From the NCBI GenBank assembly GCA_025839675.1, contig CP104013.1, forward strand, positions 5,190,001-5,222,000: a DNA stretch of 32,000 bases, written 5' to 3'. Position numbers and translations under genes: made by a program. Positions 3,362 through 32,000 of the stretch are shown here, one piece after another. This DNA is from Candidatus Lokiarchaeum ossiferum. Its GTDB lineage: Archaea > Asgardarchaeota > Lokiarchaeia > Sigyniarchaeales > Promethearchaeaceae. The notes under the pieces are model-generated. The model was not told the DNA's origin and ran no database searches. It saw only the letters and a list, made by a program, of their open reading frames with translations. Within the stretch, counting starts at the first letter, position 1. Every line of letters begins with the position of its first letter.

Positions 3362-3379
3362 ATTAGAACTAATCCTATT

Positions 3380-3394
3380 TTTTTTTTATATAGG
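3380..3394 (-). promoter_or_regulatory. TATA-box-like element upstream of paralogue 2
   Basis: The minus strand reads CCTATATAAAAAAAA roughly 20-30 nt upstream of the ATG at 3361, in the 63-nt gap between the two paralogues. This spacing fits a leaderless or short-leader archaeal transcript. Confidence 0.4.
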
Positions 3395-3424
3395 TTAAAA
3401 AAATGGAGGTTTTTGTCCATTAAA

Positions 3425-7806: not shown

Positions 7807-7909
7807 TGTCAAAAATTACTAGGCTTTTGATCTTTAAAGAAATTTCGTGCAAAATAAATATCCTTAGATGAAAATGAAAATGAAAAAAATGATTTTAACT
7901 ATATAAAAA

Positions 7910-10267: not shown

Positions 10268-10876
10268 TTACTTATTAGCTAATTTCTTCATATTAAATTT
10301 GTAGGATTCGTTCAAAATTTCATTAGTGAGAATGTGAATATCTTTGCCTGTTTTTGAACTGATTGTGTAAAATTTATCTAAATTCAATTGACGGGCAATA
10401 TCTATCATTGTATCCATTGCCACTTCTTTTTCTTCGTCAGAATTCAATAAATCCGCTTTTGTCCCAACTAAAATGATCGGGGCGTCTGCAGGGGCATTCT
10501 CTTTCCAAATTTCAAACCATTCTTGAATATACTTTGTGGTGCTAAATCGGGTTAAATCAAAACAAATTAATCCTCCCACCGCTCCTTTACAGTAACGTGG
10601 TAGCATAAATCTAAATCGTTCTTCTCCCGCAAAATCCCAAATTTGAGCTGCAATCTCAATGGAATCAAAATCATCAGCATCTTCAGGAGCAAAAGGATCC
10701 ATGATTGCTGTTTTGTATAAATGGAAATCTACTCCGATGGTCATTTTAGTTTTACTATCAAAAATACCTGTAATCATCCGTTTTGTGAGTGTTGTTTTGC
10801 CAACCCCGCCTTCTCCCAAAATACATATTTTAAGGACATTACTTGGGGGTTTGTAGTTTGATTTTGATGCTGTCAT
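10268..10876 (-). CDS. Rab/Ras-like small GTPase
   Basis: G1 is GEGGVGKT. Switch I is TIGVDF, matching the Rab-type IGVDF motif. G3 is WDFAGEERF, G4 is GTKADL and G5 is SSKTG. I place the start at ATG 10876 (MTASKSNY...); the listed start at 10921 is a TTG. There is no C-terminal cysteine, so no prenylation motif. Confidence 0.9.
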   Translation of the reverse strand: MTASKSNYKPPSNVLKICILGEGGVGKTTLTKRMITGIFDSKTKMTIGVDFHLYKTAIMDPFAPEDADDFDSIEIAAQIWDFAGEERFRFMLPRYCKGAVGGLICFDLTRFSTTKYIQEWFEIWKENAPADAPIILVGTKADLLNSDEEKEVAMDTMIDIARQLNLDKFYTISSKTGKDIHILTNEILNESYKFNMKKLANK

Positions 10877-11210
10877 AACTGAAATTCTTATCCTAGGATT
10901 CCTAAACGTTTCTATGATCAATTAGGTTGTAATAGCTATTAAGATTTTTCTGGATGAAAGGTTTTTTTTTTATCTGCCTTCTTTGAACGTATCTTTAATT
11001 AAGAAATCTTAAGAATTTTTGGCCATAATTCAATATGGGAAATATATATCTATGATGTTTAATCAATATTTAAGAAAATTGACAATGGAAAAAAAGGTCA
11101 TAAAAGAGATAGCTAAGAAGACTCCCTTAGAACTGTCCTTTTATTGATTAGAAGAAGGAAAAATTCGTTTAGCAGAAGCATTAAGGAAACAAGATATAAA
11201 AAAGAAAAAA

Positions 11211-12742: not shown

Positions 12743-15049
12743 ATGAAGGAAAACAAATTAGTCCCCTCAGAGTTATCAAAAAATTATTCAGGAACATCTG
12801 CTTTTTTTACTCCTGACTGGATGGTCACGTGCATCCTTCAAGGTACGGAGTATTTTCTCACTCAATTTTTTAATAAACCATTGGGATTGAGTGATCCTTC
12901 CCTGGTGTATTTAGAACCTTCGGCTGGTGAACTGATTTTTCCGCTAACATTATTCGATCATATATATGAAAAAAATTCAAAAGAGAAGTTCAAAGAAATT
13001 ATTCGCTCGTTGATTAAAGATCGATTGTTTTGTTATGAAATTAATCTTGACATCTATAAAAGTGGTAAACAAAATTTAAAGCGTTATATTCAAACAAAGA
13101 GGGGATTGGGTGATTTAAATTCATCTTTTAAGCATTTTTTTTTGGAGAACACTGTAGAAGATAATAATAATACTGAGGCCTTAAACAATAGAGATCAAAT
13201 ACCCCATTCATCAGAAGATTGTCTAATTATTTTTGGTAATCCTCCTTATTCTGTGAGTAATACTACAAATCGTCCGTGGATAAAGTCTTTGGTGGAAGAC
13301 TATAAAATTCACCTAAATCGACCCGGAAGAAAAAAAATCGTAGGATTGAAAGGGATTCAAGATGATTATGTGAAATTCATCCGTTTAGCTCAATGGAAGT
13401 TAGCTGATCAAAACCACCCGGGCATTTTTGCTTTCGTGGTCAATAATTATTTCATTGATGGAGATATTTTTCGAGGAATGCGCTCCTCCCTTCTCTCTGC
13501 TTTTGATTATCTCTATATCATCAATCTTTTTGGAGATCCTAAAAAATCAAAATCCAATTTCTCATCAAATCAAGAAAAACAAATAAAAACCTATGATGAA
13601 AATCCGTTTGATATTCAAACAGGAATTTGTCTCATATTCGCCATCCTCCAAAAGCCTGATTGTAAAGGAAAAGAAAAGCGTGAAAAATGTAAAGTCTTTT
13701 ATGCAGAAAAAAGAGGTTCCAAAACTCAAAAAAAACAGTTTCTTCTTCAAAAATTTGAAAAAATTTCTTTTACTGAGGTAGATCCTCGGATCGATCTTGA
13801 GTTTGTTCCCATCAGCCAGAAATTATTGAAAAAGGAAGTGAAATATAACTCCCTCCCATATCTTCCAGAAATTTTTCAATATAATATTATCGGGATTCAA
13901 TCTTTGCATGATACATTGATTACCCATCCAGATAAATCCAGACTCGTTGATATACTATCAAATTTTTATAATGGATTTTTTTCAAGCAAAGAAATAACCG
14001 ACACAAAAAATCAGAAATGGGTGAAATTTGATGGAGTTTCATATCATGACGCACGAGATTGGAAAATTACCGATGGCTTAGCGGGTTTTTTGATTAAAGC
14101 TAAAAAAAATATCATTAAATGGCAATGGCGAGGGTTTGATCAATGGTGGGTTGCCTATGATGAAAATTTGATGACAAAGGGTTCTAGTAGTTATAGTCTA
14201 ATGCAATATTTTCTTCCTCCAAATTCGAATCTCGCAATTGGCGTGTCTAAAGTTTCTCGAAAAGCAGATGGGACATCGAGTGTATTCATTACGGACCAAA
14301 TATCTGAATCTCATTTTATTGAAGGTGGATCTGGGATCGGTGATTATATATTTCCATTAAAAGTTGGCAAAAACAAAAAAAAAAAAAACGATTGGAATCT
14401 TCCTGATTCTGCTTGTGAATATAATTTATCTTCCATGATTCTTCACCATTTAAACAAGCTATATTCAGTTCAACATATTGATCCAGAAGATATTTTTTTC
14501 TATATTTGTGCAATTTTGAATTGCTCGAGGTATTCTACAAAATATCAATTTTTCTTGAAAAAGGATTTTCCCCATATTCCTTTTCCCAAAAAAATGGCTG
14601 AATTTATTCAGTTCAGTAAGATTGGAAGAAAATTTGCTCAATTATATACTTTTAACATTGATTCATCTTCAGTAAGCCAATTTTCTCTTAGTAAAGCACA
14701 GAATATGCAAATTATTTCCCCTTATTATGACCCTCTTCAGAAAAAAATCTTTTTTCAAAAAAATTCAAAACATCCAGCAATAAATTCTTCTAATAATAGA
14801 TTTTGGATTGGAAATATTGATGAATCTATGTGGAACTTTGAAATTGGTGGAATTCGTCAATTGGAATTATGGTTAAAACACCGAAAATACGTTTCTCTCA
14901 CTAATTCGGGAAATGTATCAAAAAAATTTGGATTTACTCGGAGTATTTCTGACGATGAGTTAAACCATTTCTTAAAAATATGCGTTGTAATTAAATCAAT
15001 TTTAGAATTGAAACAAAAAGTAGATTACCTATATTCACAGATTTTTTGA
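12743..15049 (+). CDS. N6-adenine DNA methyltransferase, YeeA/type ISP-like MTase plus target-recognition module (no nuclease or helicase part)
   Basis: Gamma-class order of motifs: FFTPDWMV (motif X), YLEPSAGELIF (motif I position) and IIFGNPPYSV (motif IV, NPPY). QDDYVKFIRLAQWKL and FAFVVNNYFIDG follow. The C-terminal WNFEIGGIRQLELWLKHRK matches the IGGYxVxxKWLKDRK signature I associate with type ISP/YeeA C-terminal domains. Confidence 0.7.
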   Translation: MKENKLVPSELSKNYSGTSAFFTPDWMVTCILQGTEYFLTQFFNKPLGLSDPSLVYLEPSAGELIFPLTLFDHIYEKNSKEKFKEIIRSLIKDRLFCYEINLDIYKSGKQNLKRYIQTKRGLGDLNSSFKHFFLENTVEDNNNTEALNNRDQIPHSSEDCLIIFGNPPYSVSNTTNRPWIKSLVEDYKIHLNRPGRKKIVGLKGIQDDYVKFIRLAQWKLADQNHPGIFAFVVNNYFIDGDIFRGMRSSLLSAFDYLYIINLFGDPKKSKSNFSSNQEKQIKTYDENPFDIQTGICLIFAILQKPDCKGKEKREKCKVFYAEKRGSKTQKKQFLLQKFEKISFTEVDPRIDLEFVPISQKLLKKEVKYNSLPYLPEIFQYNIIGIQSLHDTLITHPDKSRLVDILSNFYNGFFSSKEITDTKNQKWVKFDGVSYHDARDWKITDGLAGFLIKAKKNIIKWQWRGFDQWWVAYDENLMTKGSSSYSLMQYFLPPNSNLAIGVSKVSRKADGTSSVFITDQISESHFIEGGSGIGDYIFPLKVGKNKKKKNDWNLPDSACEYNLSSMILHHLNKLYSVQHIDPEDIFFYICAILNCSRYSTKYQFFLKKDFPHIPFPKKMAEFIQFSKIGRKFAQLYTFNIDSSSVSQFSLSKAQNMQIISPYYDPLQKKIFFQKNSKHPAINSSNNRFWIGNIDESMWNFEIGGIRQLELWLKHRKYVSLTNSGNVSKKFGFTRSISDDELNHFLKICVVIKSILELKQKVDYLYSQIF
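14375..14388 (+). repeat. A14 homopolymer inside the methyltransferase CDS
   Basis: Direct count gives c-aaaaaaaaaaaaaa-c at 14374-14389, encoding part of GKNKKKKND. It is the longest coding-region homopolymer I noticed in the window. Confidence 0.95.
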
Positions 15050-15081: not shown

Positions 15082-15306
15082 TTAATTGCGTTTTTGTGTG
15101 GCTCGTGCGTGTTTCTGGGCCGCGATTGAATTGGCTTGACCACCATATTTGTTCAAGATGACTCGTTTAACATACAATTTTCGATTTCGAACGCGAGGGA
15201 TCTTTTTTGATCTGGAATTAATGCCAGTTCGGGGAACTTTGGGGGTAATATTTCGAACTTTTCCTGCTTTTGTAAGACTTCCGTGTGAACCTGGAATAAT
15301 GAACAA
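15082..15306 (-). CDS. rps30e: Ribosomal protein S30e (eS30)
   Basis: [19 protein letters not shown] matches the conserved HGSLxxAGKVRxxTPK core of eS30, and the remainder is basic. There is no in-frame ATG. The ORF opens with TTG at 15306 immediately after GGAG, so the exact start is uncertain. Confidence 0.85.
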
Positions 15307-15341: not shown

Positions 15342-15417
15342 TGGTAGCCTCTCCAAGATTCGAACTTGGGTCAACGGGGTCAAGGCCCGTGATGCTTGGC
15401 CACTACACTAAGAGGCT
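15342..15417 (-). tRNA. tRNA-Gln: tRNA-Gln (anticodon UUG) with encoded CCA
   Basis: I folded the reverse complement AGCCTCT-TA-GTGT-AGTGGCCAA-GCAT-C-ACGGG-CCTTGAC-CCCGT-TGAC-CCAAG-TTCGAAT-CTTGG-AGAGGCT-A-CCA by hand. It has a 7-bp acceptor stem, a TTCGAAT T-loop, a 5-bp anticodon stem and a total length of 76 nt. The A1-U72 pair and A73 are typical of archaeal tRNA-Gln. Loop position 33 reads C rather than U. Confidence 0.8.
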
Positions 15418-15743
15418 CCCATTGATTTTTTTTAAGAACTCAAGATAGGAAAAGCTTCCACGAATAAAAAAGTTTTCGAATTTGGCTTTGACCTAGGCTG
15501 TAAAGTTCTTTCTTGTGTTGTTCTTTTGTCGATACTTTATAAATTTTTAGAAATTTTTCTTTGAATATTGAAAAGCGACTCCAATTTTTATAACAAGGGA
15601 TCACGAAGGCAGATTAATTTCAAGGAGAAAAAAGGTATCTTCTTTTTCAGTATTCTGAGCGATTACAGATACGGTTTAGATAATGTATTAATTTCAATCT
15701 TTATTGAGTAAGATATTAAAACAACAAAATCGCATAGTTGTTT

Positions 15744-16829
15744 ATGAAAAAACAAAAAATTGTAAAGCAACTCCTTTTTGCTTTGGTTTTATTTTTGTGT
15801 ATTTTTAATAATTATTCTCTGTCATATCAAAATCTAATTAAAGCAGATATTGAGCCATGTTCCTCTTCCTTGGAAATCGGAGATTATTGGAAATCAGTCG
15901 TAATTACCAAAGCTGAAGGATACAATTTTAGCTCAACCTACAATTATAAAATCGTAAATTTCACTTCAATAGAGGATTTATGGGGAAATACGCATGAATG
16001 CTATGTAAAAGTGAGTAATTTCTCATCGAATTTTTCATATGATGAATTTGATGTGATTATAGAAGGTTATTCTAAGGAATTTTTTAATATTTCGAACAAT
16101 CTAATGGTTAGAAATGCTTATTTTAGCAATCAAACGATATTTAATAATGAAACTCATGCAATTCATTCATTCCTTATCCAAAATGTGACACACAACTTCA
16201 AACGGAATATTAGTTTCAATCCGTTCCAATTGTTGTCACCAGGAAGGTCGTTGGTGGTGAATGAAACATATATTAGTAACGGAACTATTGCAATGAATGG
16301 CCCTGCAAATGAAGTAAGTTCTTTACCCATTTCTATTCTTAGAAATTATACAATGGTTGGCTATGATGAATTTATAATAGGAAACAGTCCTTTAAACGTG
16401 AGTGTTTTTCAGATAGAACAAACAATGGCTGATTTAATGTCGTTCAATGTAACCGTGTTTTACTCTCATCAATTAGGTATTGAATTAAAATCCGTCCTCA
16501 AACAGGTAGAAATAGATGGAACCTATAATGTTGAGACTGAGAATATTGTAATTGATATAAATACTCGCTCGTTCGCTGATTTATTAACCGATAATTCAAC
16601 TTCAAGTACCGCTACTGGAACAGAAACAACTACTTCAGGAACAAGTACAGAAACTAGCATTGAAACGAGTAATGAAACTCAAACTGGCTCTGAATCATCG
16701 AATAGCGAAGGTTTTTCAATTAATGGGTATTCTTCGATTTTGATTTATGGGCTTGGTTTGATGGTAGCAGTTCAATTTAGTAGGATTGTAAAAAAGAAAA
16801 AAGCGAGAGTGGTTAATCCAGCATTTTGA
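15744..16829 (+). CDS. Secreted, C-terminally anchored surface protein rich in N-glycosylation sequons
   Basis: N-terminal signal-like segment KQLLFALVLFLCIF. I counted at least 15 N-x-S/T sequons (NFS, NFT, NIS, NQT, NET, NVT, NGT, NYT, NVS, NST and others). A Ser/Thr-rich stalk (STSSTATGTETTTSGTSTETSIETSNETQTGSESS) leads to a C-terminal helix ILIYGLGLMVAVQF followed by KKKKAR. ATG at 15744; the listed start at 15738 is a TTG. Confidence 0.7.
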   Translation: MKKQKIVKQLLFALVLFLCIFNNYSLSYQNLIKADIEPCSSSLEIGDYWKSVVITKAEGYNFSSTYNYKIVNFTSIEDLWGNTHECYVKVSNFSSNFSYDEFDVIIEGYSKEFFNISNNLMVRNAYFSNQTIFNNETHAIHSFLIQNVTHNFKRNISFNPFQLLSPGRSLVVNETYISNGTIAMNGPANEVSSLPISILRNYTMVGYDEFIIGNSPLNVSVFQIEQTMADLMSFNVTVFYSHQLGIELKSVLKQVEIDGTYNVETENIVIDINTRSFADLLTDNSTSSTATGTETTTSGTSTETSIETSNETQTGSESSNSEGFSINGYSSILIYGLGLMVAVQFSRIVKKKKARVVNPAF

Positions 16830-16903: not shown

Positions 16904-17521
16904 TTAAATTGAGATTTTATGAGACCACTTTTCCAAGAATTGTTGATCAAGTTCGGGATCTCGCACATTATCCGGAAGCATCTGAGGGATATTTTCGAAA
17001 ACAGGAAACCAACGTTTGCATTCATGACATTGAATGACTGCATCTTCAATTTCGAATTCGTATTTAAAAATGTTCAGAAATTCCAACTGGGTTAATATAG
17101 ATTGAAAAATTTTATCTGGATCTGCTGGTTCACCCGCAGTTAGAGAATTCAAAGCCGCATTTAGTTTCGTTTTGATTTCTGTCTTCACTAATTCTAGAGC
17201 TTGAAGTGTCGCCCAACTTGATTTATCTTGCACATTGGAAAGTTCCTCAATCCCAGTGAGTAATTGTTCTAAGTAATGATCAAAGCGGGTAGGCTTTAAA
17301 ACTAAAAGATCATTTACAAACAATTCTCCATTTTCCCGAACTTCTTTCTTAACAGGAGTTGCCTCATTCAATTTAAGAACATTTTTTTCCTGATATCCTT
17401 TAATAAGTATTTCAAGCGGATTTGGAGAAAGTTCTTCAGATTTCCATTTTAAAATTGTTAAGCTTAAGGGATAGGCTTTATCAATCGGACAAGCAAGAAT
17501 TTCCAATAACCATAATTTCAT
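16904..17521 (-). CDS. trm112: Trm112-like protein with large central insertion
   Basis: The N-terminal LLEILACPIDKAYPL and C-terminal IQCHECKRWFPVFENIPQMLPD match the two halves of the Trm112 zinc-knuckle fold (LLxxLxCP ... LxCxxCxxxYPIxxGIPxML). About 125 helical-looking residues separate them. ATG at 17521; the listed TTG is at 17530. Confidence 0.65.
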   Translation of the reverse strand: MKLWLLEILACPIDKAYPLSLTILKWKSEELSPNPLEILIKGYQEKNVLKLNEATPVKKEVRENGELFVNDLLVLKPTRFDHYLEQLLTGIEELSNVQDKSSWATLQALELVKTEIKTKLNAALNSLTAGEPADPDKIFQSILTQLEFLNIFKYEFEIEDAVIQCHECKRWFPVFENIPQMLPDNVRDPELDQQFLEKWSHKISI

Positions 17522-17636
17522 AAAAACCAATGTAAGTAGTGGTGGCTTTGATAATAAATTTCTCCTTAAAATATTTCAAGAAAAAAAATTCAAATTCTAA
17601 TATAAAAGAAATGAAAAAAATTAAAAATGAGCGAAA

Positions 17637-19487
17637 TTAAACTGTAAAGGCTCGTAATTCGTTAATATAACGATCGATTTTCTTTTGTGAAGAAGATGTG
17701 CGTTTCAGCATTTCTTCTGAAAGTTTTTCGTAGGCTGCTTTGGAAGGGAGCTTTCCAAGTTTGTATTTTTCTTGGAGGGAATTGATACTATCCTTCACGG
17801 ACATTTTTTCTGCTTCCAAATAGTCCAATTTTTGAATGATAAATTTAACATCAACATTGGATTGTAATAGAATGCGTTTAAATGGGGCGATTTCCTCGTT
17901 TAATTCTTTCAATTTGCTGGTCAAAACTTTCATTGTTTTTGAGTAAGCTTTCTTCTGAATTTTCCGACGAATTAGGGCAGAATCTGCTTTTTCTATATCG
18001 ATTAATAATGCATTCTTTTCTTCATATAGGGTGACAAATTGGGTTAATTCGCTGATAGGAATCGTTTCAGATTGTTTTTCGATTTCTCCTTCAATTGGGT
18101 TTCTTGAACGAGTGACCGCATAAATGCTAAATATAGCTGCAAATAATAGGATAAAAATGATCGCACGATACATTTTTAATAGTAAATTCACCGAATAGGT
18201 CACATCGATAATATTTTCTTGGAAACGCGAAACACCGGTTGAACTTGTTTCATAAACAATTGATGTTGCGGTTTTATGAATATTTTCAGTATTCAAATTA
18301 GAATTTTTGAGTTTGGAAACACCCATAAGTTCTACAGTTGAACTCAATTCATCAATAACATAATCACTTTTTGTAGTAAGAATATCAAATTTCAACGATT
18401 GCTTCCCATATTCTGAAGAGATATAATCATCCACAGGTAATTCATATTCCAATGAGAATAAAATATAATTTCCTTGTCGCATTGGTGCTCGATTGTAATA
18501 AAGTAATAACGACACATCAATGGTTCCATCATCGTTTTTACTTGTGCCCATTTTGACGGCATCTGGTTGTGGATCATCCTCATTATCTCCATTTCCCAAT
18601 TCTCCAATATCATCAAAAATTCTTACATGTTCTGCTTGCTGTGGAATTTGAAAATCAAGCGTATAAATGGGTGTTTTTCCCCATGAAACAATTCTATATT
18701 GTTCCACTACTCGAATATATCCCCATGAATTAATTGTAATGTGTCGAGATAATGAATTAATTCGAATCGGACCTGCATTTTCGTTTGAATATGAAAAATT
18801 ATTGATGACCTCGTCAAATGGAGCAGAATTCTCTCCATAATATTCTTGAAAAGTTCCATCATAATCAGTGGGTTCTCCTACGAGATAATATTCTGGTTCC
18901 CCATATAAGCTCGCACTACCATCAGGAACCAAGAAAAAGGCATGAAATTCTATAACCTCATATGGACAAACGGGGTGGAGATATGCCTCATAACCATAAT
19001 AAGAATTTGCCAAAGATACAGATAACGCATCTTTAAACACCATATTTAAAGTAAAAGACACGGATGAATAGGGGAGAAGGGGTTCAGATAATAGTATTTC
19101 TAAAACATTATATCCTTGAAGTTTTTCTTCTAATAATTGAGATTTCATGGGTCCAGAAGTTAAATCGGAAGCTTCATGGAATATTAAATTCTCAACATTC
19201 GTATCAGAAAGGCAAATATCAATAGTCATAATGCTATTAGAATTATTATTTCGAATTTTGTAGGAATCTTCAATTAAAACAGTTCCAAAACTATCAACTT
19301 TAATTTCCCGTGAAACGTTTTGAATATAGATTTCATTATAGGAAGCTGAAGATGATTTTGGAAATCCACTACTACTTGCTGGAGTAGTTTGTGGAGCGGC
19401 GCCAACAGTTATGAAAAGGGGTACTACCATTAAAATAAACAGAATCCCCAAAGCGCCCGAAATTAACAACTTTTTTTGTCGAAACAT
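17637..19487 (-). CDS. Ribophorin I (OST1) homologue, oligosaccharyltransferase subunit-like
   Basis: The topology is a signal peptide, a ~400-aa lumenal or extracellular part, one TM helix ([17 protein letters not shown]) and a ~165-aa coiled-coil tail. Blocks are collinear with human RPN1 as I remember it. [20 protein letters not shown] parallels [41 protein letters not shown] parallels [38 protein letters not shown] parallels RFPLFGGWKTHYIVGYNLP. The C-terminal [35 protein letters not shown] parallels [31 protein letters not shown]. ATG at 19487. Confidence 0.8.
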   Translation of the reverse strand: [616 protein letters not shown]

Positions 19488-19684
19488 GCTCAATAGACCT
19501 TTAACATTGCGGTAATTTATTCTGTTAAATATAATGTGGTGTGTTAATTAAAAAGCATGGTTCGGTTTTTTTTTCAATAAGTTGATCATGGACTCATTGA
19601 CTCATAACCGAGAAATAATTGGTGATAATATTGAACGGTGTAGAAGTATTTGAAATGTTCTTTAAAGGAATAGATCAAAACTTT

Positions 19685-19695
19685 TTTTATTTACA
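19685..19695 (+). promoter_or_regulatory. TATA-box-like element for Sec61-beta
   Basis: TTTTTATTTAC is centred about 26 nt upstream of the ATG at 19716. This fits a leaderless transcript starting there and argues against the listed ATG at 19698. Confidence 0.35.
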
Positions 19696-19715
19696 GAATG
19701 TTTTATGTTTTAAAT

Positions 19716-19925
19716 ATGTCTCAAAAAAATAAATCGAAGCGACAAAAACGTCGATCAGCCGATGGACCAATGCCCTCAGGAGGCGCTGGATTAATTCGCT
19801 TTTATCAAGACGCTTCAAACGGAATTAAAATATCTCCAATTACTGCCATTGTTCTTTCCGTCTTGCTTATAGCAATTGTTATCGTGGGACAAGTGACATC
19901 AATATTTGATTGGATTGGCGGTTAA
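19716..19925 (+). CDS. secG: Protein translocase subunit Sec61-beta (archaeal SecG)
   Basis: A basic N-terminus is followed by GGAGLIRFYQDASNGIKISP and a single C-terminal TM helix (AIVLSVLLIAIVIVGQV). That is the Sec61-beta signature (GxxRFYxxxxxGLKxxP plus a tail anchor). Confidence 0.85.
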   Translation: MSQKNKSKRQKRRSADGPMPSGGAGLIRFYQDASNGIKISPITAIVLSVLLIAIVIVGQVTSIFDWIGG

Positions 19926-20076: not shown

Positions 20077-20385
20077 ATGGAAATCTCAAAATTTCAATCT
20101 TTAATGAAAGATTTATATTACGCTAATGATAACCGACGTGGAATTTATCGTACTACTTTATGGCTATTTGAAGAAATGGGAGAACTTTCACACGAGTTAA
20201 AAAAAAATTCTATGGAGATGGATAAAAAAGCAATCGCCGAAGAGATGGCTGACATTTATGCTTGGGTTGCTTCTCTAGCAAATTTATTAGATATTGATTT
20301 AGATGCTGCAGTTCAGCAAAAATATCCAAACAAATGTTTGAAATGCAATAAAAATCCATGCAAATGTAATAAAGATTTGGATTAG
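20077..20385 (+). CDS. MazG-like nucleotide pyrophosphohydrolase, small single-domain form with Cys-rich tail
   Basis: EEMGELSHEL ... EEMADIYAWVASLANLLDIDLDAAVQQKY matches the MazG EExxE ... ExxD four-helix motif pattern. The C-terminus is CLKCNKNPCKCNK. Confidence 0.65.
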   Translation: MEISKFQSLMKDLYYANDNRRGIYRTTLWLFEEMGELSHELKKNSMEMDKKAIAEEMADIYAWVASLANLLDIDLDAAVQQKYPNKCLKCNKNPCKCNKDLD

Positions 20386-21845: not shown

Positions 21846-22778
21846 ATGAGTTGGAGTAAGCAAAAAGAAGATTTATTGGAAATTCTTGAGAGCGTAAGTA
21901 AAATTGATCCTTATTCTCCAGAAACTAAAAATCTTGAACTTTATTTAGTCAAGTGGATGAAGATCCGAAAACTCGCAACAAATCTCATAAATCGAGAAGA
22001 TCTTTCTAACGAAGATAAACAAGTTCCCCAGTCTTTACTCCAGAAATTCAAACATCAAGTTTATCCTATCTTGTTGGAATTCTCAAAATCTGTAAAAAAA
22101 ATACCGATTAAAGAACTCCTTTCTAAATTTCGGGCTGAACTACAAAGGTATTATGCTCTGGCAGATGAGAATATTAAGATTGTACCCATGCTCTCTTTTT
22201 CAATATATGAAGATGCCCAATTTTTTGTGAATTTATATCAATTTGTATTGGAAAAATCTCTGATAAATGTCGTTAAAAATGAAATCAATTATCGAATGCG
22301 GGTATTGAAGCAATCCTTCGAAATTGAAAGCGGAACTCAAAATATTGAAGCAGATCTCATTCAATCTACTTCATCAAATGTACCTCCAGATCTACAGAAT
22401 CAATCTGAAATATTAATATCAGAAGTAAAAATGCCTGAAGAAGAACTATTGGATGCTTTATCAGGGGAAAGTTACTCTGAGCTAAAATCCGAAATAGACA
22501 TCAATTCTTCTCCTCAGATACAATTACAAGGAAATTCCGTATCTTCCAACACTGATGATGAAATTGGAATTGATTCAAATCTTGCTTCGAGCACTATTGA
22601 AGATGGGCTTCCTATTTATCAACGATTTCAACCCACCCGTTCATATGCTTACAGAAAGTGGTTTCCAGAAAATACGTGGAATCATTTTGCGAATATTCGT
22701 TATTGTAAATTTTGTGGGAAAAAATTCTTAGAAGCCCAACGAATTTGTTCTGGGTGCCACCAGCAATATATTTTTTAG
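21846..22778 (+). CDS. Hypothetical protein: helical N-domain, acidic/Ser-rich linker, C-terminal 4-Cys zinc ribbon
   Basis: 310-aa ORF with an ATG start. The C-terminus is CKFCGKKFLEAQRICSGCHQQY (CxxC...CxxC). The middle is low-complexity (SSNVPPDLQNQSE..., SSPQIQLQGNSVSSNTDDE). No family was recognised. Confidence 0.6.
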   Translation: MSWSKQKEDLLEILESVSKIDPYSPETKNLELYLVKWMKIRKLATNLINREDLSNEDKQVPQSLLQKFKHQVYPILLEFSKSVKKIPIKELLSKFRAELQRYYALADENIKIVPMLSFSIYEDAQFFVNLYQFVLEKSLINVVKNEINYRMRVLKQSFEIESGTQNIEADLIQSTSSNVPPDLQNQSEILISEVKMPEEELLDALSGESYSELKSEIDINSSPQIQLQGNSVSSNTDDEIGIDSNLASSTIEDGLPIYQRFQPTRSYAYRKWFPENTWNHFANIRYCKFCGKKFLEAQRICSGCHQQYIF

Positions 22779-22847
22779 TTTTTTTTTGGCCTCGAAAATA
22801 CTTATATATTAAAAATAGCTCGTTATATCATAAAGTAGGTGACGAAC

Positions 22848-23855
22848 ATGGACTTGACGATGGTTGAATTTAATGCTCAATTTAAGAAATATATGAATGA
22901 TGTAAAAATACTGGAGAAGACTCATCCCCGGGAATCAATAGGATTGTGGGTTCAGATTTGTCAATTTATTGTGAATTTTGCAAAGTCACCTCAATGTCCG
23001 AGGACATTACGTCCTAAACTTGTAAATCAAGCGGATTCTATTATTGTGAAAGTAAAACATATGCAACAAGGTCACATTAATTCTGTTTTTAGTAAAGATG
23101 CTCAAGTCCCCCAAAAACATATTTCTTCCAGTGTGGCTCAACACACCAATTCGTTCTCTTCTGAAGAAAATTTAGATGACTCGGATTCAAACTCTGAAGA
23201 TCACTTATTATCACAATTAAATTCATTACCCGAAATTCCTTCTGATGAAATTGCTGATCAAAGCACCAAGAACAATATAGCTAATGTTGAAAACCCCCAA
23301 GATCCTAATCAAGATTTAAATGAACAAACTCCACCACCATCAAATGCAACACCTATGGGCCCTACAAATCAATCGGAAGCCATCCCTCCAAAATTTGATT
23401 CTTCCCCCCTTTATGATTTGAAGAAATTGGAAGAAGAATTAAAACAAATGCCGTCTAACATGACAGAAATCTCTCCCAGTCCTTTTGCAAACCAAAGTAT
23501 TATTCCGGATGTGGATAAAGTTAAGAAAAACCTGGATTTGGATTCTTATAAAAAAGAAACAACCTTTCTTGATGTGACCAATACGGTACACCAAGGTGAC
23601 AGCGATCAAAGTGAAGTAAATGATCAGTCTAAAAATGCTCGCAATGATATTATGCGCGTTGCTGGTTTTTCAAAAGACCCTCTCGATCGAGATAAGTCTA
23701 AGCCCGAAATTATTAATGATCCCTTTAGTTCTGTAGATCCCGACGAAAATTTGCTTGATCAAACCGAACAGCGTACTTGTTTTGCTTGTGGGGGGTCTTT
23801 AGGTGACAACGAATTAAAATGTCCGTTATGTGGCACAGAAAATCCCCTAAATTAA
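22848..23855 (+). CDS. Hypothetical protein: MIT-like helical N-domain, long acidic/Pro/Ser-rich linker, C-terminal 4-Cys zinc ribbon
   Basis: The ATG at 22848 is preceded by GGTGA with a 5-nt spacer, and the listed GTG start at 22839 lies inside that Shine-Dalgarno-like sequence. The C-terminus is CFACGGSLGDNELKCPLCG. The architecture matches the preceding gene. Confidence 0.6.
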   Translation: MDLTMVEFNAQFKKYMNDVKILEKTHPRESIGLWVQICQFIVNFAKSPQCPRTLRPKLVNQADSIIVKVKHMQQGHINSVFSKDAQVPQKHISSSVAQHTNSFSSEENLDDSDSNSEDHLLSQLNSLPEIPSDEIADQSTKNNIANVENPQDPNQDLNEQTPPPSNATPMGPTNQSEAIPPKFDSSPLYDLKKLEEELKQMPSNMTEISPSPFANQSIIPDVDKVKKNLDLDSYKKETTFLDVTNTVHQGDSDQSEVNDQSKNARNDIMRVAGFSKDPLDRDKSKPEIINDPFSSVDPDENLLDQTEQRTCFACGGSLGDNELKCPLCGTENPLN

Positions 23856-25051: not shown

Positions 25052-25229
25052 CGTATTTTCCAAAAAAAAAGGTTTCACCAGCTATAAATAACAAAATCAT
25101 TCTCGATAACTAAGTTCAATACTTCCAGTCTCTGTTCAAACGCGAATAATTTCGATGTCAGGTAATTATCGATGAGTAATTAAAAATCGGGTCTGGAAAC
25201 ACGGACGGTCTTAAAACATGGTGGCAAAC

Positions 25230-25859
25230 ATGATAGAAAACAAATATGTTTCGTATAAACGAAAAAAGCGCTCAAAGTTGCGACGGGCAAGCGAGGGTAT
25301 GACTGCGGCTATTATTTTAATTGCGTTCATTATCACCGCGGCAGGGATTGCATTTGTGATTTTAACAATGGGATCCGAAATGCAGCTCGAGTTAGGAAAT
25401 GTAGGACAAGAAGGGAAAGATGCTGCTTCATCTGCACTTCAAGTCGAAGGTGGAATTGTTACTGGTTATTCTACCGCTGGTACAACTGTTACTGGATTTG
25501 CATTTAATGTCAAACTAGTTCTTCCGACAGGTCAAGTTGATTTGTCTTCGGATGCAATAACTGTTTGGTTGAAAATTGGTTCGGATGAAGAAGTCGAATG
25601 TACTTATGAAGGTGCTGCTTTTTCTACCTTAGCCGCTGCAGGAGCAAATAATGACGATGAATATTACATAGGTTGGCCATCTGGTTCTGGAGATGTAATT
25701 ACTTCCAGTGAAATGGCAAGATTTTATGTTAGTGCAACAACTGCAAACGGTGCCATCGAATCTGAAGATGTAGTCATCATACTAAATACAGGTGTTGCTA
25801 CTTTGAAAATAACTAAAACAATCCCAATTGGATTAGTCACTGGAGTAAACTTACTATAG
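25230..25859 (+). CDS. arlB: Archaellin (archaeal flagellin) 1
   Basis: A basic leader ends in RRASEG. It is followed by MTAAIILIAFIITAAGIAFVILTMG and GQEGKDAASSALQVEGGIVTGY. This is very close to the class-III signal and N-terminal helix of Sulfolobus-type archaellin as I remember it (GLDTAIILIAFIITASVLAYVAINMG ... GEETASTALTLSG). The ATG at 25230 is preceded by GGTGGC; the listed ATG at 25218 overlaps that Shine-Dalgarno-like sequence. Confidence 0.75.
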   Translation: MIENKYVSYKRKKRSKLRRASEGMTAAIILIAFIITAAGIAFVILTMGSEMQLELGNVGQEGKDAASSALQVEGGIVTGYSTAGTTVTGFAFNVKLVLPTGQVDLSSDAITVWLKIGSDEEVECTYEGAAFSTLAAAGANNDDEYYIGWPSGSGDVITSSEMARFYVSATTANGAIESEDVVIILNTGVATLKITKTIPIGLVTGVNLL

Positions 25860-25874
25860 GACAAGGTGAAAAAA

Positions 25875-26495
25875 ATGCAAAACAAATATGTAGAATACAA
25901 ACGTAAAAAACGCTCAAAAGTCAGAAAAGCGAGTGAAGGAATGACTGCTGCAATTATTTTAATTGCTTTCATCATAACAGCTGCGGGAATTGCTTTTGTC
26001 ATCTTAACAATGGGTTCTGAAATGCAACTCGAGTTAGGAAAAGTTGGAAGTGAAGGTAAAGACGCTTCTTCATCTGCAATGCAGGTAGAAGGTGGTATTA
26101 TTACAGGTTATACTGCTGCATCAGCAGTTCAAGCATATGGTTTCAACATCAAGCTGGTGTTATCCACAGGACAAGTAGATTTATCTTCAGATTCTATTAG
26201 TGTATGGTTATCTGTTAACCATGGTGAAGAAACAGATTTAGCTTATGATGCAAATCTCGAAACACTTGCTAATGCAAGTGCTGAAGCAAGTAATGAATAT
26301 GATATAAATTGGTATGATGGAACTGGAGATGTATTAACTGGAAATGAAATGGCTCGATTCCTTATCAGTTCAACCACTGGTGCAACTGAATCTCAAGAAG
26401 TTTTAATTGTGATCAACTCTGGTGTAGCTACTTTAAAAATTGAATTGAGTATTCCAATTGGTCTCGTTGCAGCCGGATCAAATATCTTGCAATAA
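25875..26495 (+). CDS. arlB: Archaellin 2
   Basis: Same N-terminus as archaellin 1 (KRKKRSKVRKASEGMTAAIILIAFIITAAGIAFVILTMGSEMQLELG) and same C-terminal GVATLKI..IPIGLV block, with a divergent middle. The ATG at 25875 lies after GGTGA; the listed GTG at 25866 lies inside that motif. It starts 15 nt after the stop of archaellin 1. Confidence 0.75.
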   Translation: MQNKYVEYKRKKRSKVRKASEGMTAAIILIAFIITAAGIAFVILTMGSEMQLELGKVGSEGKDASSSAMQVEGGIITGYTAASAVQAYGFNIKLVLSTGQVDLSSDSISVWLSVNHGEETDLAYDANLETLANASAEASNEYDINWYDGTGDVLTGNEMARFLISSTTGATESQEVLIVINSGVATLKIELSIPIGLVAAGSNILQ

Positions 26496-26605
26496 TCTTT
26501 TTTAAATAACTTTTTTAATCCATTTGACTTCCTGATTTTTTTAGTTCTCTTTTTGCAATTTTCAAATTTTATTTGTAAAATCAATTAGAATATTTTTAAA
26601 TTTTT

Positions 26606-26617
26606 AACTATAAATAG
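26606..26617 (+). promoter_or_regulatory. TATA-box-like element for archaellin 3
   Basis: AACTATAAATAG lies about 100 nt upstream of the ATG at 26721, which implies a long leader. It is followed by TTCGATGT (26626-26633), an 8-mer that also occurs upstream of archaellin 1 at 25151-25158. Confidence 0.35.
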
Positions 26618-26720
26618 TAATCTTTTTCGATGTACGTAACTCTTATTTCATGATCCTGTTGGGTGGCTCCCTAATAAATGGTTCAAGAAATAAAATAGAT
26701 CAAATATATTGGTGGCTAAT

Positions 26721-27359
26721 ATGAGAAATTTTGGAAAAATACTTTCATTTAGAGATGATATGAAGAAAAAAGCATCTCAGGGAATGACAGCAGCGATTAT
26801 TTTAATTGCATTTATTATAACCGCTTCAGGTATTGCATTTGTTATTTTAAGTCTAGGTACAGAAATGAGTTTGGAGCTAGATAAAATTGGTGAAGAAGGT
26901 AAAAATTCTGCTTCTAGTTCATTTAAAGTCGAAGGAAATATTGTGGTAGGATATGTTGAGGATCCTCAAGGTTCTACTAAAAATATCACAACTTATGTTT
27001 TCAATCTCGCATTGATTCTAGATTCAGGAAAAATTAATATGAAATCAAATGCCATTACCATGTGGATAAAAGTGGGAAGTGCAGAAGAAACAGAACTCTC
27101 GGAAGCTGATTGGAGTGGTGGATATTTAACAGGAGCTCGTGCTTCAATATTAAATCAATATGATATGGAATTTATTAATTCCAATTCGGATGAAATTGCA
27201 GAATCGGGTGAACTTGTTCGCATGTATGTTTCATCTACTGTTGCCCTAGGGGCAGAACCTGGAACTCGAGTGTATATAATTTTAAATTCAGAAACATGCA
27301 CATTGAAAATTAATAAAGTAATCCCAGATGGATTAAATATTGGAAGTAATATGCTCTAG
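26721..27359 (+). CDS. arlB: Archaellin 3 (divergent paralogue)
   Basis: KKASQGMTAAIILIAFIITASGIAFVILSLGTEMSLELDKIGEEGKNSASSSFKVEGNIVVGY, with a C-terminal TLKINKVIPDGL block. The ATG at 26721 is preceded by GGTGGC, as for archaellin 1; the listed TTG is at 26709. Confidence 0.7.
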   Translation: MRNFGKILSFRDDMKKKASQGMTAAIILIAFIITASGIAFVILSLGTEMSLELDKIGEEGKNSASSSFKVEGNIVVGYVEDPQGSTKNITTYVFNLALILDSGKINMKSNAITMWIKVGSAEETELSEADWSGGYLTGARASILNQYDMEFINSNSDEIAESGELVRMYVSSTVALGAEPGTRVYIILNSETCTLKINKVIPDGLNIGSNML

Positions 27360-29449: not shown

Positions 29450-32000
29450 ATGTTTAAAGGATCGGGGAAAGCATCTAGAATTATGTCTAAGAAAGGTAAG
29501 GCAGTATTGAATGTGGTGAAGTTTGGAGCGATCGTTGCTGTTATATTAGTGGGATATTCATTTAGTTCCGTAATATCGGAGCGGATCTTTAATAGATCTC
29601 CAAATCGTCTTGATCGATCTACCCAAGGGGAAGATCTGACTGCAATATCGCCTACCGACCTTATCAGGGAAGAATTGACTTTAGATTTTTCTTCCATTAT
29701 GGAAAATTTACTTGATTCAAGTTTGCTCGATTCGATGACTGACGAAGAAAAAACTCAGTTTTTTGAGGATTTATTCGGTGATGGTATCGAAGAATTCATG
29801 GATGATGAAGATTTGACTCCCGATGAATTTTTACAACAATATGGTGATGATTTGCAAGATTTAATGGAATCCATTGGGGGACAAGAATTTAGTGCCGATG
29901 CCTTGGATCAATTTCCTCCAGAACTTGCACTAATTTTACTGGCCAAGGATGTATTTTATGCATATGAATCAAATCCGAGTTCCAATTCATGGGATGATCC
30001 TGAAGACACTCTATTCAAAACTGGAGCGTATGATGAATATAACTTGGATAGTTTCTCTTGGAAAATTTCCGATCTTTTAGATAACAGAGCGGATATCTTG
30101 GATATCGATGAAGTTAATGATTACAAATGGAAAATTAAATATCCTATAACAACATTGGAGAGTACCACCCCTGCAATGCCCACCATATCTCCTTCTCCCC
30201 GAATCCAGCTTGATTCGTGGGAATCGACTCCAATCATTCCTTCGAATGATCCTGCCCCTATGAAAATGCAATCCAATATGGGTTCGGCTTATATGGAACT
30301 CGAATATTCTCTTACCGATTTAAACAAACAAACAAATATAACTTATGATCTTCTGTACAATGGCGGCGATTATCATTCTCCGAGTTATTATGATAACGAC
30401 ATTAGTATGTCACAATACGTTGGGACCTCTATTACTGTAGCAGCATGTTCCACAAGTCCTAAACAAGGTGAAACAAGTATTACGTGGACAGATTATCGTA
30501 ATACTCACCCGAATTTTGATCAAGTTGTAAGCGATTTGGCATCTTATGCGGAATTTACTGCCGCTTCCAATATATATGAAAAAATGGAAGCCATTGTCAA
30601 TTTTGTTGGAGCCAATTTTGTTTATGATCCCGCCAGTGGGTTTCGTCCCGATGAAAATGAAGATCCTTTAGAATGGTTTTGTGAAGGAAAGCAATCGGCA
30701 ATGTCATTTGAATTTACTTACTTGACGGTGTCGTTAGCTCGATTAAATAATATTGCAGCAAAGTATGTGTCTGGCTATAAATATAACCCTCTTTTTGAGT
30801 TTCAATACGGAGGGGCTTATTCTGATCCTTCTGAAGGGGGGGACGTCGCCTACCCTTATCGAGTTGGAAATTTATATTCATGGGTTGAAGCTTTTATTCC
30901 TACCTCTACTACCACTGGTGATTGGGTCTCCTTTGACAATCGATTTGATGCTGAACCCATAATCCCTACTCCTGATGGAGTAAGGTTAAACCTTGATTTT
31001 GGAGGGGCAGCTACTTCAGATTTGGCTGGTGTCCCTCGATTTATTTCTGATTTTCCTCTTGTCGGAAATGTTATCCCTGTTGAATTGACCTATACAATGC
31101 AAGGGTCAGCAATCCAAAATCAGAAAATAACTGTCAGTGATACCACATATGGCGAAGTTATTGGCGATTTTTATACCGGTCAAGGTGGAATTGGAACTTA
31201 TGAGATTGAACTTGAAAATCTGGTCCCTGGTACCCATGTATTGAATTTCACAACTACTTATTTGGGATTATCCTTTGGAAATGTTTCGGTTATTAATGTC
31301 TTGGATGACGTCGAAGTTTATTCCACTTTGAGTGACGAATATATCGTGGCTCCCTCAAATCAAGATCAAAATATTGATATTGATGGTTATGTCTGGGATC
31401 CTGTCTTAGGAAAACCAATCAAAAGTGCTCAAGTATCCTTCACCGGGTTAATGCAACCTACTGAGTCTCAACCTACTGAAGAAGTTTTTAATCTTTCACC
31501 CAATATTACGACAACGGTAGAAAATGGTAATGATTACAATTTTACTCTTGCGGCATTGATTCCAGGATTTCCTGTTGAAGATTATGGAAGGGAATACAAA
31601 ATTGTGACTAACTTTGATGGAAAATTCGATCTTTCGGCTGAAATACTTCAATACGCTCTCCCTTATCAGCTCATTTTTGCCGATATTTTTGGAGGGGGAG
31701 AACAAATCTGTACCTTCGATCCCAATGCCAATTTGTCCTTAACAGTAAATAATACGGTTGAGATTTATGATGACGAATACCATCGTTATACTTTTTACAT
31801 TAATAACTCATATTCTGTTAATAACACAGTAGGTACTTATCCTACAGGGCCAACAATTGGAGAACGTGATGGATCCTTTAGTTTATATATCAACGCGACA
31901 ACCGTTTTGGGAACTGGAGGTGAACCCGGTCAAACTATCAATATTTATGATGAAACCGAATCAGATCGTCTAGTTACCTCATTTATTACTGATGGAACGG
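29450..32000 (+). CDS. Large N-terminally anchored extracellular protein with transglutaminase-like core and beta-rich repeats (3' end beyond the window)
   Basis: This ORF is not in the supplied track because it has no stop. I translated 29450-31999 codon by codon and found no in-frame stop (850 codons). The N-terminus is MFKGSGKASRIMSKKGKAVLNVVKFGAIVAVILVGYSF (TM anchor), followed by an acidic region (DEEKTQFFEDLFGDGIEEFMDDEDL). A transglutaminase-core-like block follows (SAMSFEFTYLTVSLARLNNIAAKYVSGY ... LYSWVEAFIP ... GDWVSFDN). The rest is beta-rich, sequon-containing sequence. Confidence 0.8.
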   Translation, partial: MFKGSGKASRIMSKKGKAVLNVVKFGAIVAVILVGYSFSSVISERIFNRSPNRLDRSTQGEDLTAISPTDLIREELTLDFSSIMENLLDSSLLDSMTDEEKTQFFEDLFGDGIEEFMDDEDLTPDEFLQQYGDDLQDLMESIGGQEFSADALDQFPPELALILLAKDVFYAYESNPSSNSWDDPEDTLFKTGAYDEYNLDSFSWKISDLLDNRADILDIDEVNDYKWKIKYPITTLESTTPAMPTISPSPRIQLDSWESTPIIPSNDPAPMKMQSNMGSAYMELEYSLTDLNKQTNITYDLLYNGGDYHSPSYYDNDISMSQYVGTSITVAACSTSPKQGETSITWTDYRNTHPNFDQVVSDLASYAEFTAASNIYEKMEAIVNFVGANFVYDPASGFRPDENEDPLEWFCEGKQSAMSFEFTYLTVSLARLNNIAAKYVSGYKYNPLFEFQYGGAYSDPSEGGDVAYPYRVGNLYSWVEAFIPTSTTTGDWVSFDNRFDAEPIIPTPDGVRLNLDFGGAATSDLAGVPRFISDFPLVGNVIPVELTYTMQGSAIQNQKITVSDTTYGEVIGDFYTGQGGIGTYEIELENLVPGTHVLNFTTTYLGLSFGNVSVINVLDDVEVYSTLSDEYIVAPSNQDQNIDIDGYVWDPVLGKPIKSAQVSFTGLMQPTESQPTEEVFNLSPNITTTVENGNDYNFTLAALIPGFPVEDYGREYKIVTNFDGKFDLSAEILQYALPYQLIFADIFGGGEQICTFDPNANLSLTVNNTVEIYDDEYHRYTFYINNSYSVNNTVGTYPTGPTIGERDGSFSLYINATTVLGTGGEPGQTINIYDETESDRLVTSFITDGT

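Follow-up and report, generated by a model that had tools for sequence, protein, structure and literature searches.

We analysed a stretch of 32,000 nucleotides (nt) of the genome of Candidatus Lokiarchaeum ossiferum (contig CP104013.1, positions 5,190,001 to 5,222,000 of the forward strand; hereafter "the window"), in which a gene for subunit 1 of the oligosaccharyltransferase (OST), known as ribophorin I or RPN1 in human and as Ost1 in yeast, lies head to head with a gene for Sec61-beta. The RPN1/OST1 gene occupies 17637..19487 on the minus strand and encodes 616 amino acids (aa) from an ATG at 19487, the stop codon being at 17637-17639; the longest open reading frame (ORF), 17637..19493 (-), has 618 aa and begins with a TTG at 19493, two codons 5' of this ATG. 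The Sec61-beta gene (SecG/Sbh1-type, tail-anchored) corresponds to an ORF of 75 aa at 19698..19925 on the plus strand. Its likely true start is the ATG at 19716, since it is there that homologues from related loci begin to align (at residue 8 or 22). The product matches Pfam PF03911 over residues 29-63 (E 9.6e-13; 48.4 bits for a cut-off of 27) and the NCBIfam equivalog Sec61beta (E 2.2e-13; 49.7 bits, under the model cut-off of 55). Close to its C-terminus a hydrophobic stretch, ISPITAIVLSVLLIAIVIVGQV, is the predicted tail-anchor transmembrane helix.

A preliminary description, made from the sequence of the window, had reported this divergent arrangement and a shared region of about 230 nt, and both are borne out. 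The intergenic region (19494..19715; 27% GC) gives a spacer of 204 nt between the longest ORFs, or of 228 nt from the RPN1 ATG to the Sec61-beta start at 19716.

Identification of the 616-aa protein as ribophorin I

The 616-aa protein is the Lokiarchaeal orthologue of OST subunit 1 (ribophorin I / Ost1), as the preliminary description had proposed. Its membership of the ribophorin I family is secure because it is given by a family profile, by transitive Pfam matches, by a confident AlphaFold2 model and by the top matches of this model in Foldseek. Its nearest database match (98% identity) is a Ca. Lokiarchaeum ossiferum entry named "hypothetical protein". Loki-type homologues are 35-40% identical to the window protein overall, and two of them at 36-38% identity (P0004 and P0006) match the Pfam model Ribophorin_I (PF04597), the best at 1e-12. 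Several distant relatives also carry PF04597 in precomputed annotation.

Profiles reach the eukaryotic proteins directly. With eight close homologues the profile finds human RPN1 (6s7o_E) at E 5.9e-5. With 117 full-length sequences the E-value for the same chain falls to 6.4e-55, in one alignment that joins profile positions 15-574 to residues 8-604 of the 607 in the chain. The collinearity with human RPN1 claimed in the preliminary description therefore extends through the tail, and the block of human sequence that it had cited falls in the same register. The 117-sequence profile also matches yeast Ost1 (6c26_1; E 1.3e-25), reaching residue 470 of its 476.

A HMMER search with the eight-sequence profile retrieves 526 cluster representatives at E <= 0.001, 130 of them at 1e-30 or better; among the best 150 of these 526, most are matched up to about position 600 of the 605 in the profile, thus including the tail. 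A protein search with the 117-sequence alignment returned six close Loki proteins only and no further lineages. Archaeal RPN1 is a large family, present in Asgard lineages and at least in Bathyarchaeota, in which the tail is nearly always kept; it is also found in a Bathyarchaeota metagenome-assembled genome (MAG; locus L006). Ribophorin I homologues have been reported in Asgard archaea before, as the preliminary description had noted: Eme et al. 2023 credit an earlier report of Asgard Ost1/ribophorin I to their reference 3, Zaremba-Niedzwiedzka et al. 2017, and Wu et al. 2022 place ribophorin among the widely distributed eukaryotic signature proteins.

Predicted architecture and fold

The AlphaFold2 model of the 616-aa protein, built on the 117-sequence alignment, has a mean predicted local distance difference test score (pLDDT) of 91.8. 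According to this model the protein is of the type I membrane class, with a two-lobed beta-sandwich domain outside the cell. The N-terminus (about aa 1-30; 19398..19487, minus strand as for the following segments) is a predicted signal peptide or signal anchor composed of MFRQKK, a hydrophobic helix and VGAAP; in the model a helix spans aa 2-25 and is followed by a linker of low pLDDT. The extracytoplasmic ("lumenal") beta-sandwich region covers about aa 31-439 (18171..19397), with strands between aa 53 and 433 at pLDDT above 90. A single transmembrane helix follows at aa 440-462 (18102..18170); in the profile alignment it is aligned with the transmembrane helices of RPN1 and Ost1, and it is succeeded by TRSR. 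The remaining aa 463-616 (17640..18101) form a cytosolic tail predicted as a four-helix bundle (helices 478-506, 512-541, 545-577 and 583-615), its helices (aa 478-615) having pLDDT above 90 in both the full-length and the tail-only models. A conserved loop, RY-K/R-x-GKLPSK, is found at about aa 574-583. The ectodomain is acidic (isoelectric point, pI, 4.3) and the tail basic (pI 9.2). The succession of signal peptide, lumenal domain, single transmembrane helix and helical tail is the one given in the preliminary description; only the size of the tail has to be corrected, from about 165 aa to about 154 aa in the model.

When the model is run through Foldseek against the PDB, RPN1 and Ost1 chains take the first eight places (E 6.6e-31 to 1.4e-19). 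The top one, 8b6l_O, is the human RPN1 of the Sec61-TRAP-OST-A translocon, aligned over 611 columns at E 6.6e-31. The superposition on RPN1 that the preliminary description had suggested thus comes out in its favour, and the model of the tail also superposes on the human tail (TM-score 0.63). RPN1 of OST-A (6s7o_E) is matched at E 2e-28, RPN1 of OST-B (6s7t_E) with a TM-score of 0.75 and a root-mean-square deviation (rmsd) of 4.4 A, and yeast Ost1 with TM-scores of 0.66-0.70. The ninth match, 8whn, is at E 6e-11, and the next unrelated match is at E 8e-8.

Human RPN1 (PDB 6S7O, 8B6L) is collinear with the window protein over its full length and shares with it the lumenal fold, the transmembrane helix, the C-terminal four-helix bundle and a G-K-L...K..Y loop between helices 3 and 4. 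Disparities nevertheless exist: in the structural alignment the two are just 14-15% identical, and human RPN1 works in a complex of the endoplasmic reticulum (ER), whereas its archaeal counterpart would be located in the plasma membrane. Yeast Ost1 (PDB 6C26, 6EZN, 8AGB) matches the window protein in its lumenal beta-sandwich domains and transmembrane helix, but at 476 aa it stops just past this helix and lacks the cytosolic bundle. With its bundle the window protein belongs, on this point, to the metazoan type.

As to the other OST subunits, Eme et al. 2023 report the small subunits Ost4 and Ost5/TMEM258 in Asgard archaea, and find the subunits of subcomplex III (Ost2, Wbp1, Swp1) only in Heimdallarchaeia among them.

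The cytosolic tail

Among archaeal homologues the tail is conserved better than any other part of the protein, with the consensus ...REFxxLYEEKxAL...RYRxGKxSKxAY...ID..I..LR. It matches PDB entry 8WHN, deposited as "Ribophorin 1 superfamily protein", at E 3e-53 (chain 8whn_A; 64% identity over 151 residues). The structure was solved by Carilo et al. (J Biol Chem 2024, PMC11417166) for the OST1 cytosolic domain of Prometheoarchaeum syntrophicum MK-D1, and it is a four-helix bundle that shares the topology of the human domain. The same study reports that the MK-D1 tail pulls down human ribosomes while a control with the extracellular (N-terminal) domain does not, that the signal peptide of MK-D1 OST1 is functional and cleaved in HeLa cells, and that MK-D1 Sec61/OST/TRAP, modelled with AlphaFold2, can be superposed on the human translocon.

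MK-D1 OST1 (WP_147663064.1) has the architecture of the window protein, and the tail model superposes on the 8WHN crystal structure with TM-scores of 0.83-0.90. It belongs to a different genus, and its extracytoplasmic part is far more diverged than its tail. By analogy, the function of the signal peptide, the four-helix bundle and the ribosome pull-down observed for MK-D1 may reasonably be transferred to the window protein. The tail modelled alone reaches a pLDDT of 92.7 and TM-scores of 0.83-0.86 to 8WHN; on the human RPN1 tail (8b6l_O) it superposes with a TMq of 0.63 and an rmsd of 3.7 A over 133 columns. At the level of sequence, a hidden Markov model (HMM) of 115 tails gives the human tail 21.2 bits (E 0.002 at PDB size), while none of 500 shuffles scores above 11 bits. 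The preliminary description had also envisaged a match limited to the lumenal part, with an unrelated coiled coil as tail; the profile alignment, the superposition and the crystal topology of the MK-D1 domain (PMC11417166) all speak for a match that includes the tail.

The best structural match of the tail outside OST1 is Rex1BD of Schizosaccharomyces pombe (8J0H; Foldseek E 0.02, TM-score 0.69-0.78, rmsd 3.1), a REX1B domain which is a four-helix bundle of similar size. The Pfam model DNA_repr_REX1B (PF14966) gives sub-threshold matches, in the same register, to Loki-type tails (best 4.5e-7), all those of the window protein being below the Pfam cut-off of 24 bits. The top Pfam match of the human RPN1 tail is also REX1B, likewise sub-threshold (E 0.009) and in the same register. 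Other coiled-coil families (DUF724, CdvA and GvpG) score like REX1B on the tail and, unlike the window protein, the REX1B protein is soluble, nuclear or cytosolic, and has no membrane part. The REX1B matches hint at a shared ancestry between the tail of RPN1 and the REX1B domain of eukaryotes, which we take as a lead and not as membership of that family.

On two independent contigs the RPN1 gene is followed, at the position usually held by Trm112, by a gene for a soluble stand-alone copy of the tail of 149 aa (L002:770-1219 (+) and L071:762-1208 (+)). These copies are 43% identical to the window tail, have neither signal peptide nor transmembrane helix, and keep the GKLPSKAAY loop. Such a copy could be a free competitor or a regulator of the binding partner of the tail.

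Conservation of the Sec61-beta|RPN1 junction

In the window the pair is flanked on both sides. Behind Sec61-beta and in the same direction lies a gene for a MazG-like nucleotide pyrophosphohydrolase (20077..20385, +; Pfam MazG, E 3e-8). Directly downstream of RPN1 and on the same strand is a gene for a Trm112-like zinc-ribbon protein (16904..17530, -; Pfam Trm112p, E 4.3e-10). The latter protein has 208 aa, the halves of its zinc ribbon being parted by an insertion of about 130 aa, and its Pfam match is split over aa 8-178; part of the insertion shows a weak similarity to human TRMT112 (E 0.065).

To follow this arrangement we sampled 6 loci from GTDB genomes, one from a JGI contig and 80 from metagenomes, and looked for the four window proteins among the six-frame ORFs of these loci by iterated HMM searches. 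The metagenome loci were sought with a 28-sequence subset and the pattern RY[KR][RKL]G[KR]LPS[KR], and the sample is therefore biased to the clade that bears the GKLPSK motif. A near-complete RPN1 is present in 86 loci, of which 68 have at least 450 nt upstream and are informative for the pairing.

All 68 informative loci carry a divergent Sec61-beta within 500 nt of RPN1 (median ORF-to-ORF gap 152 nt), so the adjacency is by no means peculiar to this genome, a case that the preliminary description had considered would weaken the link. MazG stands behind Sec61-beta in 62/62 loci with at least 900 nt upstream, and in 75 of 78 loci Trm112 comes after RPN1 in the same orientation. The conserved order of the block is MazG<-Sec61beta<-|->RPN1->Trm112. 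In 73 loci the spacer equivalent to that of the window measures 133-236 nt, with 153 nt as the median. The RPN1 proteins of the paired loci are 28-40% identical to the query and fall into 42 single-linkage clusters at 70% identity, most of them joining a single cluster at 50%; the named members are Lokiarchaeota-type MAGs or Ca. Harpocratesius repetitus. The pairing also exists in three more divergent relatives: P0017 (L095; 29% RPN1 identity), P0025 (L097; 27%) and P0043 (L098; 24%).

Within the block, the Sec61-beta|RPN1 junction is the most stable feature, because the outer flanks differ (9 homology clusters beyond MazG on the left, 7 beyond Trm112 on the right) and because MazG or Trm112 is lost or moved in some loci while the pairing is kept: L097 is without MazG, and L061 and L098 are without a co-directional Trm112, which is inverted in L098. 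For MK-D1, the accessions given by Carilo et al. (Table S1, PMC11417166) for OST1 (WP_147663064.1) and Sec61-beta (WP_147663065.1) are consecutive, which suggests that the two genes are adjacent there as well. The gene neighbourhood is not mentioned in that paper, and in the searchable literature we found no statement on the adjacency of RPN1 and Sec61-beta.

Lineages without the pairing and genes of glycan synthesis

The preliminary description had asked how far the pair is conserved across Asgard lineages. It is conserved in the Lokiarchaeia-type clade (68/68 informative loci), and it is absent from the seven more distant lineages sampled: Candidatus Borrarchaeum (L089), the P0059 clade (L091), P0049 (L094), P0065 (L096), P0057 (L099), P0096 (L101) and a Bathyarchaeota-like contig (L100). 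Three loci, L005, L006 and L093, were left out of this call, their DNA ending too near RPN1. The lineages without Sec61-beta have no common partner gene in its place: the upstream genes of L089 and L101 are homologous (hexapeptide-repeat transferases) and the others are unrelated. In the P0059 clade the divergent neighbour is a Glycos_transf_4 gene and Trm112 is still downstream of RPN1; the gene of a methyltransferase activator is thus linked to that of an OST subunit also where Sec61-beta is not. The pairing looks like an arrangement of the Loki lineage and not like an ancestral Asgard one; it possibly arose by insertion of MazG-Sec61beta beside RPN1.

The wider genomic association of archaeal RPN1 is with the synthesis of lipid-linked glycans, because Glycos_transf_4, DUF354 and hexapeptide-transferase genes recur across paired and unpaired lineages. 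Glycos_transf_4, the family of the AglH/ALG7-type GlcNAc-1-P transferases, follows Trm112 in 39 of 49 Loki-type loci (e.g. L012:6672-8015) and is also near RPN1 in L089 (9888-10874), L091 (3194-4492), L095 (7180-8505) and L099 (7070-8065). This neighbour is not present in the window, where we read it as lost. DUF354 and hexapeptide-repeat transferase genes recur beside the block or beside the RPN1 gene. As a candidate for Agl24/Alg13-14, DUF354 gained no support: four DUF354 neighbours have no GGxGGH-type motif and a literature search gave nothing. Between DUF354 and Glycos_transf_4, L089 (9599-9868, -) and L099 (6807-7064, -) encode a small protein of 85-89 aa with several transmembrane segments and no Pfam match.

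Other genes of the window

Two genes away from RPN1, at 15738-16829 (+), is a gene for a 363-aa secreted or membrane-anchored protein with a signal peptide, a Thr/Ser-rich stalk, a C-terminal transmembrane helix, a run of KKKK, and no Pfam match. It contains 17 N-x-S/T sequons for 7.2 +/- 2.3 expected from shuffles. Judged from this count, it is likely a heavily N-glycosylated surface protein. The gene of ribosomal protein eS30 (15082-15306, -; Pfam Ribosomal_S30, E 1.5e-10) adjoins that of tRNA-Gln(TTG) (15342-15417, -). The ORFs 21846-22778 and 22839-23855 have no Pfam match, and each ends with a C-terminal Cys-rich, zinc-ribbon-like motif. Further genes lie among 704-6046 (-), 6187-7812 (-), 10268-10921 (-), 12743-15049 (+), 25218-27359 (+) and 29450-32000 (+). 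They include two tandem PPDK_N-domain paralogues, a 540-aa ThiF/E1-like protein, a Ras/Roc-family small GTPase, a protein with a Type ISP C-terminal specificity domain and three tandem archaellin genes; a large transglutaminase-like surface protein runs past the end of the window. The remaining gene content of the window is consistent with an Asgard archaeon, in view of the Ras-family GTPase, the ThiF/E1-like protein, the three archaellins and eS30.

Discussion

Taken as a whole, the data are in our view quite probably best explained by an Ost1 orthologue with a role at the OST and the translocon, whose gene forms a co-regulated pair with Sec61-beta in Loki-type archaea. The protein would join AglB/STT3 and OST3/6, which would be encoded elsewhere in the genome, at the plasma membrane. 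Its tail would keep the translating ribosome beside the SecY/Sec61 channel, and nascent chains would be N-glycosylated on emergence, i.e. co-translationally, as by mammalian OST-A. RPN1 and Sec61-beta would be co-regulated from a bidirectional promoter region in the spacer of about 150-230 nt; such co-regulation is probable because a deep Lokiarchaeia-type clade has retained the junction in spite of variable outer flanks.

Several results weigh against this explanation. Taken alone, the 616-aa protein has no match to PF04597 when Pfam is scanned with hmmscan (E <= 1), and none in NCBIfam; read literally, this outcome counts against the ribophorin I call of the preliminary description, which had proposed a search with the family profile as its first check. 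No STT3/AglB or OST3/6 domain is found in the window ORFs of at least 100 aa or in the ORF that runs off the end, in agreement with what the preliminary description had noted. For the tail, pairwise BLASTP between the window and human sequences has no significance (E 2.7), a 37-sequence tail profile run against the PDB places human RPN1 at rank 31 (E 0.12), amid tropomyosin-type coiled coils, and Foldseek with the tail-only model places the human tail just at rank 17 (E 0.9), behind S. pombe Rex1BD. The published pull-down used human, not archaeal, ribosomes and a basic domain. The pairing is missing from the seven lineages named above, and a conserved gene order is not evidence of physical interaction. 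As for the promoters, the TATA-like elements that had been described on both sides of the spacer do exist as strings, but they are uninformative, seven hexamers being not above chance in such a sequence (4.5 +/- 3.2 in equally AT-rich windows of 222 nt); a position profile made from 73 loci, for the 80 nt in front of each of the two genes, shows a diffuse A/T-rich signal and no sharp motif.

The Pfam miss is a failure of model sensitivity, because close homologues match PF04597 and the family profile finds RPN1. The Ribophorin_I model probably also misses the MK-D1 protein. According to one publication (PMC11284389, 2024), P. syntrophicum MK-D1 has no Ost1 (ribophorin I), while part of the same protein has been crystallised (PMC11417166); since the window protein is likewise missed by the Pfam model, this conflict is probably a problem of detection sensitivity. 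As to the tail, its similarity to the human tail appears borderline when its sequence is taken by itself. In our reading the archaeal and human tails are nevertheless homologous and, because the sequence and Foldseek scores of the tail alone are weak, this reading is founded on position, length, topology and full-length collinearity, not on the tail sequence alone.

The tail could instead be a general-purpose basic four-helix bundle of REX1B type with another role in archaea (oligomerisation, binding of a cytosolic partner, sensing), its likeness to the human tail being one of fold only. The borderline tail-only link, the rank of Rex1BD ahead of the human tail, the sub-threshold REX1B matches, the soluble stand-alone copies in some genomes and the use of heterologous ribosomes in the pull-down are all in line with this. 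But the position, length and C-terminal extent of the tail are those of human RPN1 within one continuous alignment, the helix topology in the crystal is that of the human domain, the N-terminal domain control did not bind ribosomes (PMC11417166), and in a comparison of over 100 diverse archaeal sequences conservation is highest in the tail. That REX1B is the top sub-threshold Pfam match of the human tail too, in the same register, links the two tails and does not separate them. We therefore hold a generic bundle to be unlikely. Still less credible, indeed very improbable, is that a ribophorin fold serves here outside any OST, in a lone surface or membrane protein such as a substrate-holding chaperone or an S-layer-associated protein. 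The lack of AglB and OST3/6 genes in the window would agree with it; against it, the RPN1 gene of other lineages is repeatedly found beside Glycos_transf_4 (AglH/ALG7-type), DUF354 and hexapeptide-transferase genes, MK-D1 OST1 is in the published AlphaFold2 models part of an OST complex that can be superposed on human OST (PMC11417166), and eukaryotic Ost1/RPN1 is known solely as an OST subunit.

A stronger challenge concerns the gene pair and not the protein. The gene would be ribophorin I, but its pairing with Sec61-beta would be an inherited housekeeping block with no translocon-specific meaning, maintained by vertical descent and by a short bidirectional promoter that is hard to split. To this we give a chance only somewhat short of even. 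The block also holds MazG and Trm112, and we know of no link of either to secretion or glycosylation. The absence of the pairing from all seven more distant lineages points the same way, as do the named members of the paired set, all Lokiarchaeota-type, and the gathering of most paired loci in one single-linkage cluster at 50% RPN1 identity, by which many are not independent. On the other side, the junction persists at 24-29% RPN1 identity, survives the loss of MazG (L097) and the relocation of Trm112 (L061, L098), and is kept while the outer flanks change; moreover the products of the two genes serve the same membrane machine in eukaryotes. A co-regulated pair linked to the translocon, which we prefer, can also be given a more specific form, in which the junction would ensure the co-regulated, stoichiometric output of a ribosome-SecYE-beta-OST supercomplex at the plasma membrane, the RPN1 bundle docking the ribosome in an OST-A-like, pre-ER manner. 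This form is tentative, and we think it rather unlikely as it stands.

The identity of the protein and the conservation of its tail are already known from published work, because Carilo et al. 2024 (PMC11417166) showed them for the orthologue of the sister genus. The sole new point is a small one of limited phylogenetic reach, namely that the Sec61-beta pairing is conserved in Loki-type archaea and not in other lineages. Not being pan-Asgard, the pairing is not to be taken for an ancestral trait that eukaryotes inherited. A Lokiarchaeum-type genome has the orthologue, although the protein is annotated as "hypothetical" and missed by the Pfam model. A ribophorin I with a ribosome-facing tail would be a eukaryote-like part of the translocon, and it supports an Asgard origin of the ER machinery of protein export and glycosylation, a case already made by Zaremba-Niedzwiedzka et al. 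2017 (credited by Eme et al. 2023) and by Carilo et al. 2024. The Sec61-beta|RPN1 junction, kept across a deep Loki-type clade, adds a testable prediction: the two genes would be co-expressed.

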